Source: a virus (taxonomy: Duplodnaviria; Heunggongvirae; Uroviricota; Caudoviricetes). From it: 37,035 bases of DNA. The position numbers and the translations under genes were made by a program. The notes beneath the pieces were generated by a model. That model was not told the DNA's origin. It did not search any database and saw nothing but the letters and a program-made list of their open reading frames with translations. Positions 19,223-27,983 of the stretch are shown here, piece by piece. The stretch's first letter is position 1. Every line of letters begins with the position of its first letter. The DNA is taken from IMG/VR virus record IMGVR_UViG_2541047861_000014; one strand, 5' to 3'.

Positions 19223-19582
19223 ATTAATATTAAATCGGATTATTTTTAGCGCTGAATGTGAAATTTAAATAAAAAGGACTCTTCCATGAGTCAAAATCCT
19301 TGAAATCTTAAGGGTAAGATAAAAGGTCATTAGACAGAATGACACGTTTTATTAATAAATAAAGCTATTGTTTCATTCGTGTGTTTTTCTTTACAAAAGT
19401 AATCCTTGCTATGGTTGGTTAATCATGCGTTAATGGTGTTCTGGTTTGTTACAAAATTATCTGAAGCAGTCATTGTTATAATTTTATTATTTGTACCTCT
19501 TGAGATTTCCTTGTTGGTTTTTCTCTCTGATATTTTTTTTCGGACCATTCTGCCCAAGGGCTAACTTCTTCAAAAGGTAATA

Positions 19583-19798
19583 ATGATGTTTAACAAAATG
19601 ACTGGTTTAGTGAAATGGTTTAACCCTGAAAAAGGTTTTGGTTTCATCACGCCGAAAGATGGTAGCAAAGATGTGTTTGTGCATTTCTCAGCTATTCAGA
19701 GCAACGATTTCAAAACGTTAACTGAGAATCAGGAAGTCGAATTTGGTATTGAGAACGGACCTAAAGGCCCTGCAGCTGTTCATGTAGTGGCACTTTGA
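19583..19798 (+). CDS. cspI: Cold-shock protein CspI-like
   Basis: ...[67 protein letters not shown]; matches CspI as recalled; long AT-rich 5' leader typical of csp genes. Confidence 0.88.
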
Positions 19799-20003
19799 GG
19801 TAGAAAATATTACAAACCATATTCACTTTAGATGCCCGTGTTGCCATGGTTCTCAGTATAGAACATCATCTTTTGATGTTTCTGACAGAAATCCTTTCGG
19901 GGCAAAATGTATCTTTTGTAAATCAATGATGATTACATTTGATAATATTTCACAATACTTAAATGTTAGCCATCTGTCGTTAGATTTAAGAAAGTGAAAA
20001 TGA

Positions 20004-20026
20004 AGGCTCCTTCGGGAGCTTTTTTG
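20004..20026 (+). terminator. Rho-independent terminator
   Basis: GCTCC-TTCG-GGAGC hairpin followed by T6. Confidence 0.65.
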
Positions 20027-20069
20027 CTTAGTGTCTAGTCGATGGATACTCACATATTACGGTAACATT

Positions 20070-20300
20070 ATGAAAAAAATAATAGTTTTTTTTAACTCTG
20101 AACCAGCAATGGTAGTGCCAGTGATGACCGGAGTTAACACCATCATGCGTGAATATCCAAATGGCGAAACAACACACCTCACTGTAATGGCTGCAGGGTT
20201 TCCATCTCTGACCGGAGATCATAAAGTCATTTATGTAGCAGCGGATCGACATGTAACTTCAGAAGAAATTCTGGAAGCAGCAATGAGACTCTTGAATTGA
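20070..20300 (+). CDS. Hypothetical small protein (76 aa)
   Basis: ORF from ATG 20070 (MKKIIVFFNSEP...); weak RBS. Confidence 0.35.
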   Translation: MKKIIVFFNSEPAMVVPVMTGVNTIMREYPNGETTHLTVMAAGFPSLTGDHKVIYVAADRHVTSEEILEAAMRLLN

Positions 20301-20472
20301 TTTGATTCTAATGCATTGATAATAAATGATAATCATCTTTATCTGTTTGTGTGAAATTTAGACCGTCGTATGTTGATTATTGCGATGTTTCATCTTATCT
20401 TTTATACGTTTGCTCCATATAATTGACACTACTGTGTACCAGGACAGTCATAACAGACTAAAAGAGGAAATG

Positions 20473-20646
20473 ATGAACATTGAAGAGTTAAAAACAAAAA
20501 CAGAAGCAGATATTTCTGAATATATAACAAAAAAAATCATTGAGCTTAAGAAAAAGACCGGGAAAGAAGTTACCAGTATCCAGTTTACTGCACGGGAAAA
20601 AATGACTGGTCTTGAAAGCTATGATATCAAGATTGATTTAATCTAG
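20473..20646 (+). CDS. gnsB: GnsA/GnsB-family small protein
   Basis: MNIEELKTKTEADISEYITKKIIELKKKTGKEVTSIQFTAREKMTGLESYDIKIDLI; GAGG RBS; 57 aa; Gns-family pattern as recalled. Confidence 0.7.
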   Translation: MNIEELKTKTEADISEYITKKIIELKKKTGKEVTSIQFTAREKMTGLESYDIKIDLI

Positions 20647-20941
20647 CATGTTTATAGTATTAGCATCAATTTCTCATCAGATGCTATTCAACAATACAAA
20701 TTACCCATAAACCTCGTTTTTACGGGGTTTTGTTATATTTAAACATTACCGAATAGATATAAATCTCGATTGTCAATGGTATTGGTTGTGTGACAATACC
20801 TAGTCTTTCCGGTATGCCTGAAGAGAATACAAACGACAGATTATGTAAGGGAAACGCGCTGAAACTTTCACTCTTTCATGCTGAGTGATTTGACGTTATA
20901 TTTTTAGCCGCAAGTGAAGAGCAAACGAATGGAGCGACAAA

Positions 20942-21148
20942 ATGCATAAAGATCAATACACTGATGCCCCCTCCCAGGAGCAGGTTCGTGTAAAAACTAT
21001 GCTTAATAGCACCATTTCGATGGGTTACCCGGATGTTGTAATTGCATGTATAGAACATCAAGTATCTCTGGAAGCATTCAGGGCAATTGAGGCCGCGTTA
21101 GTAAAGCACGATAAGAATACGAAGGATTATTCCCTGGTGGTTGACTGA
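20942..21148 (+). CDS. Hypothetical small protein (68 aa)
   Basis: ORF with GGAG 8 nt upstream; no recognised motif. Confidence 0.35.
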
Positions 21149-21513
21149 TCACCATAACTGCTAACCATTCTGACCATTTCACAAGTGACAGAGTCAATAT
21201 CGTATTCTGTCACTGTAAGGCTAATACAGTACTGCAATTCAACTACAGCAATGCCTCGTATTTAGGTGAATTTACAATATCGTCCAGTTCGGATGCCGGC
21301 TGCATTTCTGAAGATAAGGCATTTCGGTTCGCGTATTTTCCCCTCATGCTCGTCAGTCCTGCGCGTAGTAAGAAACAGGACACTCACACTAATTTGTGTG
21401 GGCATGCTGTGATGTCCTTCTGAATTATCCCCATGCCATTATGTAACGCTCTGTTTCAGATGCTCGTCACGGTTGTCAGGCTGTCGGGTCCTCCCAGTGG
21501 GGGTCCCTGCCAC

Positions 21514-21531
21514 GGGGCGGGAGCGTCGCGG
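21514..21531. other. cosN-like cohesive-end site
   Basis: ACGGGGCGGGAGCGTCGCGG closely resembles lambda cosN (ACGGGGCGGCGACCTCGCGGG, from memory); about 185 bp upstream of the terminase small-subunit ATG, matching the lambda cos-to-Nu1 spacing. Confidence 0.55.
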
Positions 21532-21700
21532 AAAAAGGCTAGTTTTTGCATTTTTATCGGCCACCATCATCTTTGCATCTTATTGATTATTAATGGTTGT
21601 TTGTTTTTTGTATGTCGAATTGAGTGTTTTTTGTTCGACATCGAACGCGTTTTCTTAAAGTTGTTCGCACGATGCATGTTTAAAGCTCTCCGGAGGAAAT

Positions 21701-22192
21701 ATGGATCATGAGTTGAAAAACCTGGTGCTGAATATTAATCAACTGGCGGCTTTATCTGGTCTGCACCGCCAGACTGTCGTGGCAAGACTGAAAAACATTC
21801 GTCCCGCTGGTGGACATGACAAACTCAAGCTATACCGGTTGACCGATATTCTGACTGAATTTATGGGGTTACCACCGCCGGTTGCTGAGGGCGAAATGGA
21901 TCCACATGAACGCAAAGCCTGGTATCAGTCTGAACGTGAGCGTCTTAAGTTCGAACAGGAAACGGCACAACTCATTCCGGCCAGTGATGTCAGACGGGAG
22001 TTTGCCATCTGGGCAAAAGCGGTCGTGCAGGTGCTGGAGACATTACCGGATATTCTGGAACGTGACTGCGGCCTGCAGCCTGCCGCTGTGAGCCGTGTTC
22101 AGTCCATTATTGATGATCTGCGCGATCAGATAGCCCTGCGGGTGACCGAAGCAGGTGCGGATGATGAGGAGGAATTACAGCAGGAGGAGTAA
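21701..22192 (+). CDS. Terminase small subunit (HTH DNA-binding)
   Basis: 163 aa with N-terminal HTH (LNINQLAALSGLHRQTVVARLKN); GGAGGA RBS; TAATG-coupled to the large subunit. Confidence 0.8.
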   Translation: MDHELKNLVLNINQLAALSGLHRQTVVARLKNIRPAGGHDKLKLYRLTDILTEFMGLPPPVAEGEMDPHERKAWYQSERERLKFEQETAQLIPASDVRREFAIWAKAVVQVLETLPDILERDCGLQPAAVSRVQSIIDDLRDQIALRVTEAGADDEEELQQEE

Positions 22193-24294
22193 TGCTGAAT
22201 CAGGAAACCGCAAAGGCAGCACGAACCGATTCAGGTTATATCCTTCGCGCACCGAGACGAATGCGGGTTGCTGATGCCGTTGCTCAGTATATGCGGGTGC
22301 CCATGGGGGCCGGGAACTCAGTCCCGTGGGATCCGCTGGTGGCACCGTATGTTATTGAGCCGATGAACTGCCTGGCCTCGCGTGAATACGACGCAGTGAT
22401 ATTTGTTGGCCCGGCACGAACTGGCAAGACTATCGGCCTGATTGACGGCTGGGTGATTTACAACGTGATTTGCGATCCTGCTGATATGCTGATCATTCAG
22501 ATGACGGAGGAAAAAGCCCGCGAACACTCCAAAAAACGACTTGCCAGAACGTTTCGCGTCAGCCCGGAAGTGGTCAGTCGCCTGAGTCCGAACAAAAATG
22601 ACAACAACGTTTATGACAGAACATTCCTTGCTGGCAACTACCTGAAAATCGGCTGGCCGTCAGTCAATATCATGTCCTCATCAGATTATAAATGCGTGGC
22701 GCTGACGGATTATGACCGTTTTCCGGAAGATATTGATGGCGAGGGGGATGCCTTCTCTCTTGCCTCAAAACGTACCACCACATTTATGTCCAGTGGTATG
22801 ACGCTGGTGGAGAGTTCCCCCGGCAGGGATGTGAAGGATGTGAAATGGCGACGGACTTCACCGCATGAGGCTCCACCAACCACGGGGATACTGTCGCTCT
22901 ATAACCGTGGCGATCGCCGTCGCTGGTACTGGCCCTGTCCACACTGTGGTGAGTATTTTCAGCCCTGCGGCGATGTGGTTGCTGGTTTCCGTGATATTGC
23001 CGATCCCGTGCTGGCAAGTGAGGCGGCTTATATTCAGTGTCCTTCCTGTTCAGGACGGATTATGCCTGAACAAAAACGTGAGCTGAACGGACGTGGGGTC
23101 TGGTTGCGGGATGGTGAATCCATCAATGCGGATGGCAGTCGTTATGGTGATCCCCGACGCTCACGTATTGCGTCATTCTGGATGGAGGGGCCGGCAGCTG
23201 CTTACCAGACACTCTCGCAACTCGTTTACAAACTGCTTGCTGCAGAACAGGAATACGAGACAACCGGAAGTGAAGAAACACTCAAGACGGTTATCAATAC
23301 CGACTGGGGATTACCTTATCTTCCCCGTGCCAGCATGGAGCAACGAAAAAGTGAACTGCTTGAGCAGCGGGCAGAGCCAGTTCCTTCCCGCAGTGTGCCG
23401 GATGGCGTTAATTTCCTGGTGGCGACAGTTGATGTGCAGGCGGGACGTCATCGCCGTTTTGTGGTTCAGGTAACGGGCTATGGCAGCCGTGGCGAACGCT
23501 GGATTATTGATCGTTACAACATCACGCAGTCATTGCGCGGTGACAGCGACGGGGAGAGCCAGCGAATTGATCCGGCCAGCTATCCGGAAGACTGGGATGT
23601 CCTGCTGACGGATGTTTTTCATAAAAGCTGGCCGCTGGCCTCCGATCCTTCTCAACAAATGCGACTGATGGCAATGGCGGTGGACTCCGGCGGTGAAGAC
23701 GGAGTCACTGATAATGCCTATAAATTCTGGCGTCGTTGCCGTCGTGATGGCCTTGGTAAACGTATTTACCTGTTTAAGGGCGATAGCATCCGGCGCGCAA
23801 AACTGATCACCCGTACATTCCCTGATAACACCGGACGAACGGGCCGACGGGCGCAGGCCGCAGGTGATGTACCGCTCTGGCTTCTTCAGACGGATGCCCT
23901 GAAAGACCGGGTGAATAACGCGTTATGGCGTGACTCGCCAGGTCCCGGCTATGTGCATTTCCCTGACTGGCTGGGGAGCTGGTTTTACGACGAACTGACG
24001 TATGAAGAGCGGAGCAGTGACGGGAAATGGAGTAAGCCGGGTCGCGGTGCCAACGAAGCTTTTGACCTGATGGTGTATGCCGAGGCTCTGGTCATTCTGC
24101 ATGGATACGAAAAGATCCGCTGGCCGGATGCACCGGAGTGGGCGAGCCGGGAAACCTGGCTGGAGTGTGTCCCGGACAGTACCGAACCGTCACCCACACC
24201 GGAACCGGTATCCACGCCTGTTAAAAAACAAAAACGGAAGAAAACAGTAACTGACGATGTTAACCCCTGGCTGACTTCCGGAGGATGGTTATGA
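22192..24294 (+). CDS. Terminase large subunit (lambda gpA family)
   Basis: 700 aa; Walker A-like VGPARTGKT; CPHCGE zinc motif as in lambda gpA. Confidence 0.9.
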   Translation: MLNQETAKAARTDSGYILRAPRRMRVADAVAQYMRVPMGAGNSVPWDPLVAPYVIEPMNCLASREYDAVIFVGPARTGKTIGLIDGWVIYNVICDPADMLIIQMTEEKAREHSKKRLARTFRVSPEVVSRLSPNKNDNNVYDRTFLAGNYLKIGWPSVNIMSSSDYKCVALTDYDRFPEDIDGEGDAFSLASKRTTTFMSSGMTLVESSPGRDVKDVKWRRTSPHEAPPTTGILSLYNRGDRRRWYWPCPHCGEYFQPCGDVVAGFRDIADPVLASEAAYIQCPSCSGRIMPEQKRELNGRGVWLRDGESINADGSRYGDPRRSRIASFWMEGPAAAYQTLSQLVYKLLAAEQEYETTGSEETLKTVINTDWGLPYLPRASMEQRKSELLEQRAEPVPSRSVPDGVNFLVATVDVQAGRHRRFVVQVTGYGSRGERWIIDRYNITQSLRGDSDGESQRIDPASYPEDWDVLLTDVFHKSWPLASDPSQQMRLMAMAVDSGGEDGVTDNAYKFWRRCRRDGLGKRIYLFKGDSIRRAKLITRTFPDNTGRTGRRAQAAGDVPLWLLQTDALKDRVNNALWRDSPGPGYVHFPDWLGSWFYDELTYEERSSDGKWSKPGRGANEAFDLMVYAEALVILHGYEKIRWPDAPEWASRETWLECVPDSTEPSPTPEPVSTPVKKQKRKKTVTDDVNPWLTSGGWL

Positions 24295-24503: not shown

Positions 24504-26011
24504 TGGCAATTCTTGATGATGTGATTGGCGTTTTTTCACCAGGATGGAAAGCGGCAAGGCTGCGTTCCCGTGCGGTGATCCAGGCTTATGAGGCCGTAAA
24601 AACGACGCGGACACACAAAGCCCGGCGGGAAAACCGAACTGCCGACCAGTTAAGCCAGTACGGGGCCGTGTCGTTACGTGAGCAGGCCCGTTACCTTGAT
24701 AACAACCACGATCTGGTCATTGGTGTATTTGACAAGCTGGAAGAACGGGTGGTGGGGAAAAACGGGATTATTGTCGAGCCACATCCGGTATTACGCAATG
24801 GGGCCATTGCCCGTGATCTGGCAGCGGAGATACGCACCCGATGGAGTGAATGGTCTGTCAGTCCGGAAGTCACCGGGCAGTTTACCCGTCCGATGCTGGA
24901 ACGTCTGATGTTGCGTACCTGGCTGCGCGATGGTGAGGTGTTTGCCCAGATGGTTTCCGGGCGCATAAACAGCCTGACGCCTTCTGCCGGTGTTCATTTC
25001 TGGCTGGAGGCGCTCGAGCCGGACTTTATTCCCATGACCAGTGATGAGAGCAACAGGCTGAATCAGGGCGTGTTTGTTGATGACTGGGGGCGTCCCGAAA
25101 AATATCTGGTGTATAAAAGCCGTCCCGTATCCGGACGGCAGATGGAAACCAAAGAAGTGGATGCAGAGCGAATGCTGCATCTTAAATTTGTTCGCCGTCT
25201 GCACCAGATGCGCGGGACGTCTTTGTTGTCCGGTGTGCTGATCCGCCTCAGTGCCCTGAAAGAGTATGAAGATTCTGAGCTGACTGCAGCAAGGATCGCC
25301 GCTGCTCTGGGGATGTACATCCGGAAAGGCGACGGGCAGAGCTATGAACCGGATGGTAATGGCAGCAAGGATAAGGAACGCGAGCTTACCATTCAGCCAG
25401 GCATTATTTACGACGATCTGAAACCCGGCGAAGAAATCGGAATGGTGAAGTCGGATCGCCCCAATCCTAATCTTGAAACTTTTCGTAATGGTCAGTTGCG
25501 TGCCGTGGCGGCGGGCAGTCGTCTGAGTTTTTCCAGTACAGCGCGCAACTATAACGGCACTTACAGCGCCCAGCGTCAGGAGCTGGTTGAATCCACTGAT
25601 GGCTACCTGATCCTGCAGGACTGGTTTATTGGTGCCGTCACCCGCCCGATGTATCGTGCCTGGCTGAAACAGGCTGTGGCATCCGGTGTTATCAGGCTAC
25701 CCCGCGATCTTGATCGTTCTTCACTGTATACCGCGGTGTATTCCGGACCGGTGATGCCGTGGATTGACCCTGTTAAGGAGGCTGAGGCCTGGAAAATTCA
25801 GATTCGTGGTGGAGCGGCGACAGAATCAGACTGGGTACGTGCAGGTGGTCGTAATCCAGATGATGTCAAACGTCGGCGCAAGGCCGAAATTGATGAAAAC
25901 CGCAAGCTGGATCTGGTATTTGATACCGATCCGGCCAGTGATAAAGGAGGCAGCAGTGCCGCAACGAAACGACAGGAGCCGCAGCACACCGACGACCAGT
26001 CCGAAGAATAA
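24503..26011 (+). CDS. Portal protein (lambda gpB family)
   Basis: 502 aa from ATG 24503 (TGATG overlap with W); size and position as lambda B; acidic C-terminus. Confidence 0.85.
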   Translation: MAILDDVIGVFSPGWKAARLRSRAVIQAYEAVKTTRTHKARRENRTADQLSQYGAVSLREQARYLDNNHDLVIGVFDKLEERVVGKNGIIVEPHPVLRNGAIARDLAAEIRTRWSEWSVSPEVTGQFTRPMLERLMLRTWLRDGEVFAQMVSGRINSLTPSAGVHFWLEALEPDFIPMTSDESNRLNQGVFVDDWGRPEKYLVYKSRPVSGRQMETKEVDAERMLHLKFVRRLHQMRGTSLLSGVLIRLSALKEYEDSELTAARIAAALGMYIRKGDGQSYEPDGNGSKDKERELTIQPGIIYDDLKPGEEIGMVKSDRPNPNLETFRNGQLRAVAAGSRLSFSSTARNYNGTYSAQRQELVESTDGYLILQDWFIGAVTRPMYRAWLKQAVASGVIRLPRDLDRSSLYTAVYSGPVMPWIDPVKEAEAWKIQIRGGAATESDWVRAGGRNPDDVKRRRKAEIDENRKLDLVFDTDPASDKGGSSAATKRQEPQHTDDQSEE

Positions 26012-26024
26012 TTCCTGGTTCAGG

Positions 26025-27983
26025 ATGCAGGCAGGTCACCAGAGTGACGCGGATATTTATATTTATGACGAGATTGGTTTCTGGGGTGTTACGGCGAAGC
26101 AGTTTATCAGTGATCTGAATGCACTGGGCGATATCACCCACATTAATCTCCATATTAATTCACCGGGTGGCGATGTCTTTGAAGGCATCGCCATTTTTAA
26201 TGCACTGAAAACACATGGTGCGTCCATTACCGTTTATGTCGACGGTGTGGCGGCGTCAATGGCGTCGGTCATTGCGATGGTGGGAAACCCGGTCATTATG
26301 CCGGAAAACTCCTTCATGATGATTCATAAACCATTTGGCTTTACGGGCGGTGATGCGGAGGACATGCGCACCTATGCCGACCTGCTCGATAAAGTTGAGG
26401 CGGTTCTGTTACCCGCTTATGCACAGAAAACCGGGAAAACCACCGATGAAATTGCTGCCATGCTGGCGGATGAGACCTGGATGTCCGGTGCCGAATGTCT
26501 GGCACAGGGATTTGCTGATCAGGTGACACCAGCCGTTAAGGCAATGGCATGTATTCAGTCAAAACGTACAGAGGAATTTAAAAAGATGCCGGAATCCATT
26601 CGAAATATGATTACTCCGCCACGCAACAGTGCTCCACGCGTACAGGATGATGGACCTGCAGCCTCCCGGACGCCAGTGCAGGCAGCAGCACCCGTGGTGG
26701 ATGAAAACAGCATCCGTGCGCAGGTCCTGGCAGAGCAAAAAGCGCGTGTAAACGGTATTAATGATCTGTTTGCCATGTTTGGCGGGCGTTATCAGTCGTT
26801 GCAGGCTCAGTGTCTTGCCGATCCTGAATGTTCGCTGGAGCAGGCCCGCGAAAAGCTGTTGAACGAGATGGGGCGCGAGTCCACGCCATCCAATAAAAAT
26901 ACCCCGGCTCATATTTATGCCGGTAACGGTAATTTTGTGGGGGACGGGATCCGCCAGGCGCTGATGGCGCGCGCCGGGTTTGAAAAAACTGAACGTGATA
27001 ATGTCTACAACGGGATGACCCTGCGTGAATATGCCCGTATGTCACTGACTGAACGTGGTATTGGTGTTTCCAGTTATAACCCGATGCAGATGGTCGGTGC
27101 GGCGTTCACACACAGTACGTCTGACTTCGGTAATATTCTGCTGGATGTTGCGAACAAAGCCATTCTGCAGGGCTGGGAAGATGCCCCTGAAACCTATGAA
27201 CAGTGGACGCGGAAAGGTCAGTTGTCTGATTTTAAAATTGCCCATCGTGTGGGTATGGGGGGCTTCAGTGCTCTGCGTCAGGTGCGTGAAGGGGCAGAAT
27301 ATAAATACGTCACCACCGGAGATAAACAGGCCACTATTGCACTGGCGACCTATGGCGAGCTGTTCAGTATCACCCGTCAGGCCATTATCAATGATGATCT
27401 GAATATGCTGACCGATGTCCCGATGAAGCTGGGCCGTGCGGCGAAATCCACTATTGCCGATCTGGTTTATGCCATTCTGACGTCTAACCCGAAAATCTCC
27501 ACAGATAATGTAAGTCTGTTCGATAAAGCGAAACATGCAAACGTACTGGAGAGCGCGGCAATGGACGTGGCATCGCTGGATAAAGCCCGCCAGTTGATGC
27601 GCGTTCAGAAAGAGGGTGAGCGTCATCTGAATATTCGTCCTGCGTTCGTACTGGTACCGACGGCGATGGAGTCTGTTGCTAACCAGGTCATTCGCTCCTC
27701 AAGTGTCAAGGGGGCTGACATTAACGCCGGTATTATTAACCCGGTGAAAGATTTTGCGACCGTTATTGCAGAGCCTCGTCTTGATGATAACAGCCAGACC
27801 ACCTTCTACCTGGCTGCGTCCAAAGGCTCCGATACGATTGAAGTGGCTTATCTCAACGGTGTGGATACGCCATATATTGATCAGATGGAGGGCTTCAGTG
27901 TGGATGGCGTGACAACGAAAGTGCGTATTGACGCTGGTGTTGCGCCAGTTGATCACCGCGGCCTGGTGAAATGTACGGCGTAA
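26025..27983 (+). CDS. Prohead protease (ClpP/S49-like) fused to major capsid protein
   Basis: 652 aa; N-terminal region with ClpP-like signature (INSPGGDVFEG ... ASMASVIAM ... MIHKP) followed by a ~400-aa capsid-like domain in one reading frame. Confidence 0.75.
   Translation: MQAGHQSDADIYIYDEIGFWGVTAKQFISDLNALGDITHINLHINSPGGDVFEGIAIFNALKTHGASITVYVDGVAASMASVIAMVGNPVIMPENSFMMIHKPFGFTGGDAEDMRTYADLLDKVEAVLLPAYAQKTGKTTDEIAAMLADETWMSGAECLAQGFADQVTPAVKAMACIQSKRTEEFKKMPESIRNMITPPRNSAPRVQDDGPAASRTPVQAAAPVVDENSIRAQVLAEQKARVNGINDLFAMFGGRYQSLQAQCLADPECSLEQAREKLLNEMGRESTPSNKNTPAHIYAGNGNFVGDGIRQALMARAGFEKTERDNVYNGMTLREYARMSLTERGIGVSSYNPMQMVGAAFTHSTSDFGNILLDVANKAILQGWEDAPETYEQWTRKGQLSDFKIAHRVGMGGFSALRQVREGAEYKYVTTGDKQATIALATYGELFSITRQAIINDDLNMLTDVPMKLGRAAKSTIADLVYAILTSNPKISTDNVSLFDKAKHANVLESAAMDVASLDKARQLMRVQKEGERHLNIRPAFVLVPTAMESVANQVIRSSSVKGADINAGIINPVKDFATVIAEPRLDDNSQTTFYLAASKGSDTIEVAYLNGVDTPYIDQMEGFSVDGVTTKVRIDAGVAPVDHRGLVKCTA

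Follow-up and report, generated by a model that had tools for sequence, protein, structure and literature searches.

The cos sites of lambda-like phages are modular. Phages lambda and 21 carry the same cosQ and cosN elements and differ in cosB and in the specificity of the small terminase subunit, TerS (PMC4669245). Work from the Feiss laboratory on Gifsy-1 and Gifsy-2, mEp213/LLS and N15 has described 12-nt lambda-like cohesive ends that vary in cosN's right half, at bp 7-12, and keep their CG flanks and cosQ, together with a cosB of the order R3-I1-R2-R1 in Gifsy-type phages; Gifsy-1 has three R sequences and a site for integration host factor (IHF), and a putative mEp213/LLS end is GGGCGGCGCGCT (PMC4669245, PMC9026076, PMC12315714). 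Natural variation of cosN is concentrated in bp 7-12, falling at bp 9 and 12 in N15 and at bp 8, 9 and 11 in Gifsy-1, and these positions are mutation-tolerant, changes in them having little effect on cleavage (PMC4669245). Here we describe the cos site of a 37,035-nt viral stretch, IMG/VR record IMGVR_UViG_2541047861_000014, which as a whole is called the window below. This cos is an unremarkable member of a well-studied class and is already known: the genome record of phage cdtI has opened with its exact cohesive end since 2007.

The site is very likely the functional cos of a complete lambdoid prophage of extraintestinal pathogenic (ExPEC) and avian pathogenic (APEC) Escherichia coli, integrated beside yjjG/prfC. 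During late growth, a TerS of the DUF1441 type would bind cosB, made up of an R3-like element, an IHF-like site and an inverted pair of R2-like and R1-like elements, whilst IHF would bend the DNA. TerS would set two nuclease centres of the large subunit, a gpA-family TerL, symmetrically on cosN, and each centre would cut 3' of CCRCG on its own strand, leaving a 12-nt 5' cohesive end. Packaging would then proceed rightwards and stop at the next cosQ and cosN. We infer the nick chemistry, the overhang length and the binding of TerS and IHF from homology to lambda. The elements at and around the predicted cut (a slash marks a cut here and below) are:

21486 to 21492, plus strand: cosQ-like heptamer GGGTCCT, the packaging-termination element, identical to lambda cosQ.
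21510 to 21531, plus strand: cosN, CCACG/GGGCGGGAGCGT/CGCGG, recognised by its unique pattern, its symmetry, the record ends of cdtI and Tritos, and relatives.
21515 to 21526, plus strand: predicted 12-nt 5' cohesive end (left) GGGCGGGAGCGT, with right end 5'-ACGCTCCCGCCC, from lambda homology and the Cr-LKS3 and yong2 ends.
21527 to 21547, plus strand: right flank and spacer CGCGGAAAAAGGCTAGTTTTT, which contains A5 and T5 tracts and is strongly conserved in groups ranging from enterobacteria to Pasteurellaceae and a cyanophage.

The 20-mer ACGGGGCGGGAGCGTCGCGG (ACG/GGGCGGGAGCGT/CGCGG) occupies 21512-21531, within the context ...GGGTCCTCCCAGTGGGGGTCCCTGCCACG/GGGCGGGAGCGT/CGCGGAAAAAGGCTAGTTTTT..., and its pattern GGGCGG-N6-CGCGG occurs once in the window, counting both strands, and in none of 100 dinucleotide-preserving shuffles. 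When it is aligned on the joined ends of lambda (ACG/GGGCGGCGACCT/CGCGG), the only mismatches are at bp 7, 8, 9 and 11 of the overhang; 8 of the 12 overhang positions are identical (bp 1-6, 10 and 12), including all six of the left half. An earlier note made from the sequence alone had placed a lambda-like cosN about 185 bp upstream of the TerS gene, with GGGCGG and TCGCGG kept around a different centre, and this description holds: the first overhang base lies 186 bp from the terS start codon at 21701 (191 bp in lambda). The lambda cosQ heptamer, of which that note made no mention, is present too, starting 29 bp left of the predicted top-strand nick, 1 bp closer than in lambda (30 bp), and many relatives keep cosQ as GGGTCCTCC at a fixed distance. 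Two-fold symmetric positions number 12 of 22 in the window cosN and 10 of 22 in that of lambda. The CCACG/CCGCG symmetry is centred between bp 6 and 7, and CG dinucleotides flank both predicted nick positions. Since the reverse complement of CGCGG is CCGCG, CCRCG stands directly 5' of the predicted cut on each strand. To the right of the cohesive end, the window carries the flank CGCGGRAAnGGCTRGTTTT, which is conserved in more than 50 loci; the spacer CGCGGAAAAAGGCTAGTTTTT separates cosN from the first predicted TerS site, and its role may be in TerL seating or DNA bending. A full-text literature search with the 12-mer GGGCGGGAGCGT gave as its sole match an unrelated paper on a mammalian promoter.

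Two kinds of evidence bear on where the site is cut. A megablast search with the cos region showed a break at the site in two phage records, those of cdtI (AB285204) and Tritos (OV696610), which open with GGGCGGGAGCGTCGCGGAAAAAGGCTAGTTTTT, the first 12 nt being GGGCGGGAGCGT, and close with ...CTGCCACG (...CCACG); their break is therefore at window 21514/21515. The second kind, independent of the first, is family conservation. A TerS protein scan, taking one genome per species, gave 66 loci, spread over Enterobacterales, Pasteurellaceae, Marinobacter, Psychromonas and others. With the conserved right flank as anchor, we obtained 43 distinct CCACG-N12-CGCGG sites upstream of DUF1441 TerS genes in many genera, with CCACG and CGCGG near-invariant and exactly 12 nt apart. 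The information content in these 43 relatives is as follows:

Left flank CCACG: about 2 bits per position.
Overhang bp 1-3: 1.3-1.8 bits per position.
Overhang bp 7-12: 0.5-0.96 bits per position.
Right flank CGCGG: about 2 bits per position.

Conserved blocks thus enclose a variable 12-nt segment, whose limits coincide exactly with the two predicted nicks. The cyanophage Cr-LKS3, whose 5' cohesive ends GGGCTCGCG, of 9 nt, were reported from virion DNA (PMC9303873), reads ...GACGCG/GGGCTCGCG/CGCGGAAGTCGGCAGTTTTT in its record, which puts its right nick directly before the homologue of the window's CGCGGAAAAAGGCTAGTTTTT, at CGCGG. The record of Hafnia phage yong2 starts at the homologous base, again directly before CGCGG. 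Cr-LKS3 resembles the window in having a homologous TerS (34-37% identity), a CG left flank, the right flank CGCGGAAGTCGGCAGTTTTT and a cosQ-like GGGTCCC, and differs in its 9-nt overhang and its cyanobacterial host. The 12-nt cohesive ends that the earlier note predicted are supported indirectly by the cdtI and Tritos record breaks, by the right ends of Cr-LKS3 and yong2 and by the 12-nt spacing of the conserved flanks, and the predicted nicks would lie at 21514/21515 on the top strand and 21526/21527 on the bottom strand.

To the right of cosN, the order of elements is that of lambda: an R3-position element near bp 50, then an IHF-like site on the minus strand, then an inverted pair of sites (bp numbers in cosB are window coordinates minus 21514).

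21561 to 21571 (bp 47-57), plus strand: R3-like CCACCATCATC, candidate principal TerS-binding site, at the position of lambda and N15 R3.
21576 to 21588 (bp 62-74), minus strand: IHF-like AATCAATAAGATG, one mismatch to WATCAANNNNTTR, the I1 equivalent, between the R3-like and R2-like elements.
21602-21611 (bp 88) and 21625-21634 (bp 111): 10-bp direct repeat TGTTTTTTGT, each copy followed by one inverted-repeat arm.
21612 to 21619 (bp 98-105), minus strand: R2-like element, the left arm ATGTCGAA (plus-strand letters), near-invariant in relatives.
21634 to 21641 (bp 120-127), plus strand: R1-like element, the right arm TTCGACAT, homologous to TGTTCACCATCAT in relatives.
21661-21667 (bp 147): partial further copy, TTGTTCG.

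R3 lies at bp 50-65 in lambda and at bp 48-60 in N15 (PMC9026076), and relatives of the window carry GTCATCATCATCAT or lineage-specific variants at the R3-like position. The same script that found these elements places lambda I1 on the minus strand at bp 79-91, likewise with one mismatch, the inverted R2 at bp 109 and R1 at bp 151, so that the window R1 is closer to R2; the window R-site sequences are unrelated to the lambda CGTTTCC motif. An IHF-like match is found in 37 of 56 distinct family sequences, nearly always on the minus strand and starting at bp 61-64, against 5.9 +/- 2.4 (maximum 15) in shuffles, a count that is supportive but is not a probability, because shared ancestry inflates it. 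Phage cdtI is among the carriers, though the rest of its cosB is unrelated.

The inverted repeat, ATGTCGAA-N14-TTCGACAT with 8-bp arms, had been offered in the earlier note as a candidate cosB or TerS-binding site. It is real, and the proposal is a reasonable one: the arms fall at conserved, co-varying R2 and R1 positions. An inverted repeat of 8 bp is unremarkable alone, and its significance lies in its conservation. In a cross-genus alignment of 23 sequences, conserved blocks stand at the cosB positions (TCATCATCAT, TTGAT(T/A), (A/G)TGTCGA(A/T) and TGTTCA(C)CATCA), the third of these, the R2-like block, being near-invariant. The three R-like elements change together between lineages:

Gifsy-2: R3 zone TCAGCACTGAA; inverted pair CAGTGTCGAA...TTCGACACTG, 10/10 complementary.
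Most enterobacterial members: R3 zone GTCATCATCAT; inverted pair ATGATGTCGA...TCACCATCAT.
L019: R3 zone GTCGTCACC; inverted pair AGTGACGA...TCATCACT.
VT1-Sakai: R3 zone CATCATC(A); inverted pair GATGATGATT...CGACATCTTT.

Such co-variation of the R3 zone with the inverted pair is the pattern expected of three sites for one sequence-specific protein. The elements thus have the positions and orientations of a lambda-type cosB, are conserved and co-vary, the R3-like element resembling R1 and R2 only loosely. The repeat is reasonably taken as a good cosB candidate, predicted to be equivalent to R2 and R1, with the R3-like and IHF-like sites to its left.

It is unlikely that the repeat at 21612-21641 is instead a transcript hairpin, acting as a weak terminator or in translational control of terS. 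A scan does find a terminator-like hairpin with a T-rich tail at 21632-21647, but this single match is within chance (0.6 +/- 0.9 expected), and late lambdoid transcripts have to cross cos to reach terS. In most relatives, the right arm overlaps the start codon of terS, so that its conservation may partly reflect translation signals; an RNA hairpin would, however, leave unexplained the co-variation of the arms with the R3 zone some 50-70 bp upstream (Gifsy-2, L019 and VT1-Sakai), and the orientation pattern fits that of lambda R3, R2 (inverted) and R1. No Rfam family matches the region, and a promoter scan of the cos region gave no promoter-like site.

Several observations weigh against the interpretation of the locus as a lambda-like cos with 12-nt ends. 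Nick positions and overhang length in the window phage are predictions from its sequence, and the points at which the cdtI and Tritos records start may have been chosen by analogy to lambda and not measured; the Tritos paper is silent on genome ends, and in the Ayreon note cos packaging is a prediction only. Across the wider family, overhang length or block spacing is not constant (it is 9 nt in Cr-LKS3 and 11 or 14 nt in VT1-Sakai, Gifsy-2 and yong2-type sites), and the figure of 12 nt is for this reason a prediction. CG dinucleotides at bp 10-11 and 15-16 of the window site are compatible with a 9-nt or a 14-nt stagger. The R3-like element matches the R1-like and R2-like elements at only about 5 of 9 positions. 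As for the protein, BLASTP gives no similarity between the window TerS and lambda Nu1, and a PDB sequence search with it gave no meaningful match and no relative of solved structure.

A rival reading is that the site is a cos with another stagger, the bottom strand being nicked before another CG to give an end of 9 nt (GGGCGGGAG) or of 14 nt (GGGCGGGAGCGTCG). The 9-nt ends reported for the family member Cr-LKS3 (PMC9303873), the relatives whose conserved blocks stand 11 or 14 nt apart and the two CG dinucleotides all speak for it. It is nonetheless decidedly unlikely. The right end of Cr-LKS3 and yong2 is directly before the flank CGCGGRAA..GGC, which in the window starts at bp 13; the boundary between low and high conservation lies exactly between bp 12 and 13; and the flanking symmetry has its centre in the middle of a 12-nt segment, between bp 6 and 7.

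The cos site precedes the two terminase genes:

21701 to 22192, plus strand: TerS (small terminase), 163 aa, Pfam DUF1441 (E 4.6e-44), with an N-terminal helix-turn-helix DNA-binding region.
22192 to 24294, plus strand: TerL (large terminase), 700 aa, gpA family (Pfam GpA_ATPase and GpA_nuclease), the predicted cosN-nicking enzyme.

The product of 21701-22192 is named 'DUF1441 family protein' by RefSeq/PGAP, and Pfam lists DUF1441 as of unknown function. We take it to be the small terminase subunit because of its position, its membership of PHROG 141 ('terminase small subunit', E 2.7e-77) and the reciprocal match to the PHROG of Nu1: the window TerS cross-matches PHROG 57 (lambda Nu1) at 8e-9, and lambda Nu1 matches PHROG 141 at 6e-8. 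On these cross-matches alone, the DUF1441 TerS may be a remote homologue of Nu1. It would do the work of Nu1, but it differs from the lambda protein in not being a member of the Pfam Phage_Nu1 profile (PF07471), matching DUF1441 (PF07278) instead. TerL has both gpA domains (GpA_ATPase, 8.6e-72; GpA_nuclease, 1.2e-85) and is only 25% identical to lambda gpA (BLASTP, E 4e-19); it is 88% identical to the cdtI TerL, the C-terminal nuclease half being almost identical. Downstream of TerL come a small open reading frame (ORF) of head-tail adaptor size and a lambda-family portal. The DUF1441-TerS module, in which TerS is directly followed by a gpA-type TerL, a lambda-family portal and a fusion of ClpP protease and major capsid protein, is found whole in the window. 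Homologues of the window TerS occur in Gifsy-2, cdtI, mEp460, mEp213 and VT1-Sakai-type phages, and Gifsy-2 and mEp213 are in this respect alike to the window phage. The fusion of ClpP-like prohead protease and major capsid protein is at 25764-27983, as in Gifsy-2/mEp213-type heads, and overlaps the end of the portal gene.

Over 5.5 kb, the window matches E. coli FY26 and NCTC11151 at 100% identity and S88 and APEC O1 at 99.9%, and the prophage type occurs in ExPEC and APEC E. coli. In the RefSeq annotation, the S88 element has the look of a complete lambdoid prophage, adjacent to yjjG/prfC, and runs from integrase to Q, lysis, an accessory block (cspI, ymcF, ynfN, gnsB), terminase, portal, ClpP/capsid fusion and tail; cos has no annotation there. 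That the site is an inactive relic, in a prophage no longer packaging DNA, is a highly improbable reading. Many E. coli lambdoid prophages are defective, one gene of the S88 lysis region (ydfR family) is a pseudogene, and 2,102 of 5,426 complete E. coli genomes (~39%) carry the 72-bp cosQ-cosN core, in up to 7 copies per genome, so that not all copies can come from active phages. The gene set is, however, full (integrase, regulators, replication, Q, lysis, terminase, portal, capsid and tail), the reading frames of TerS and TerL are unbroken, and PhiR40.1, PhiR47.1 and PhiR55.1, viable phages that form plaques, combine a 100% identical TerS with a cos in which only two of the 186 bp to the right of the nick differ. 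Headful (pac) packaging with a coincidental lambda-like string has a probability close to negligible, no support for it having been found, since TerL is of the gpA family with both gpA-specific Pfam domains (E of the order of 1e-72 to 1e-86), the discrete cosQ-cosN core forms a conserved 72-bp island amid flanks that are otherwise unrelated, and GGGCGG-N6-CGCGG is absent from shuffles.

Close relatives of this cos are found in cdtI and Tritos, with which the window shares an identical cosN, the same cosQ, about 39 bp of right flank (in cdtI to 21553), an 88% identical TerL and the prfC integration region. DNA homology between the window and cdtI is nevertheless confined to 21482-21553 (72 bp, 90%) and then resumes from 22291 onward (89%); in cosB, from 21554 onward, in terS and over the first 100 nt of terL, the DNA is unrelated, and the two TerS proteins are 42% identical with divergent N-terminal domains. 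In the comparison with phi458/mEp460, TerS residues 63-163 are identical and residues 1-62, the DNA-binding region, have diverged, and the R-like elements differ too. As in lambda and 21, therefore, the window, phi458/mEp460 and cdtI/Tritos types share a cosQ-cosN core and differ in cosB and in the TerS DNA-binding domains; unlike those of lambda and 21, their differences in specificity are predicted from sequence.

The distribution of these types was surveyed in IMG/VR with the exact 28-mer across the nick, which detects uncut copies only and not contig ends at the site. At least 120 contigs carry it, that is, the site is common, and the cosB types in 120 such contigs are about 60 of phi458, about 36 of cdtI, 19 of the window and 1 other. 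Among the matches listed for the 72-bp core in complete E. coli genomes, none has an annotated feature beneath it.

Packaging specificity is, judging from these comparisons, set by cosB and TerS and not by the central cosN bases, the right half of cosN drifting. The earlier note had proposed a distinct packaging specificity from the different central sequence. The distinctness stands, in that the window specificity would differ from that of lambda because cosB and TerS differ, but the cause lies there and not in the tolerant centre of cosN (PMC4669245). The effect of the different cohesive end would mainly be that window and lambda ends mismatch at 4 of 12 positions.

We suggest only tentatively, thinking it rather doubtful, that the shared cosQ-cosN core, joined as it is to at least 3-4 cassettes of cosB and TerS DNA-binding domain unrelated in DNA, would act as an exchange point for packaging specificity. 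If this is so, and if termination needs only cosQ and cosN as in lambda, co-resident prophages that differ in initiation specificity could terminate on, or recombine at, each other's cos, and the 72-bp core would be a target for satellite-like piracy. It would also amount to a population-level system of packaging specificity, as yet undescribed for the window phage group.

The finding assigns genome ends and a packaging origin to a type of E. coli prophage that is very common and whose cos is without annotation. It can be used for correct linearisation of related phage genomes, for the design of cosmid and transduction tools with DUF1441-module terminases, and for predicting which co-resident prophages can exchange or mis-package DNA.

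Some further observations concern the family sites. A sub-class has 14 nt between the left CG and the conserved CGCGG, in the form CACCG-N14-CGCGG (L020, L023, L025, L026, L030, L039, L056, L067 and L203/L204, yong2) or, in Gifsy-2 (L201), CCACG-N14-CGCGG, and the distance from cosQ to CGCGG is constant at 34 nt. VT1-Sakai (L008) has only 11 nt between the blocks; the 14-nt and 11-nt sites reflect either a different overhang length or a displaced left nick. The window differs from Gifsy-1 in that it departs from lambda at bp 7 too, and from Gifsy-2, whose record shows the alternative cosQ-like AAGGTACT, in both cosQ and spacing. In place of GGGTCCT(CC), (A)AGGTACT(CC) stands about 29 bp left of the nick in L018, L019, L036, L038, L049-L066 and L201, the carriers of this two-position variant being Gifsy-2, Pasteurellaceae prophages and several enterobacteria. 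The variant may be worth attention given the statement that natural cosQ variation is not apparent (PMC4669245).

Directly left of cosQ, lambda (L006, 48,440-48,470) and many family loci have the palindromic ATGATAATCATTATCA, which is absent from window 21455-21485. The window has CGGTTGTCAGGCTGTC instead, a TGTC(A/G)GG repeat that is expanded in Tritos. The ATGATAATCATTATCA palindrome is one that we take to resemble the Fur-box consensus. The record of mEp460_4F5 (L007/L013, LR595868.1) has its first base 5 nt to the left of the predicted nick, and its sequence there, GGGCGGGAGCGCGG, is short of 3 nt of cosN that all relatives have. We considered this break as evidence of a physical end but rejected it for its ambiguity; an assembly artefact at the virion DNA end is the probable cause.

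An ORF of 92 aa at 21433-21711 (plus strand) spans cosQ, cosN and cosB, and its equivalents are labelled 'hypothetical protein' in PhiR40_1, mEp460, HannyBb and other records. Linear virion DNA would cut this ORF in two, which makes a spurious gene call the probable explanation. To the left of cos, the accessory block at about 19580-21150, between an Rz-like gene and cos, holds cold-shock genes (cspI-like, 19583-19798), ymcF, ynfN and a ybcW-like ORF, with a GnsA/GnsB-family toxin gene at 20380-20646. The genes of this block are those reported as highly expressed morons in the Tritos paper.

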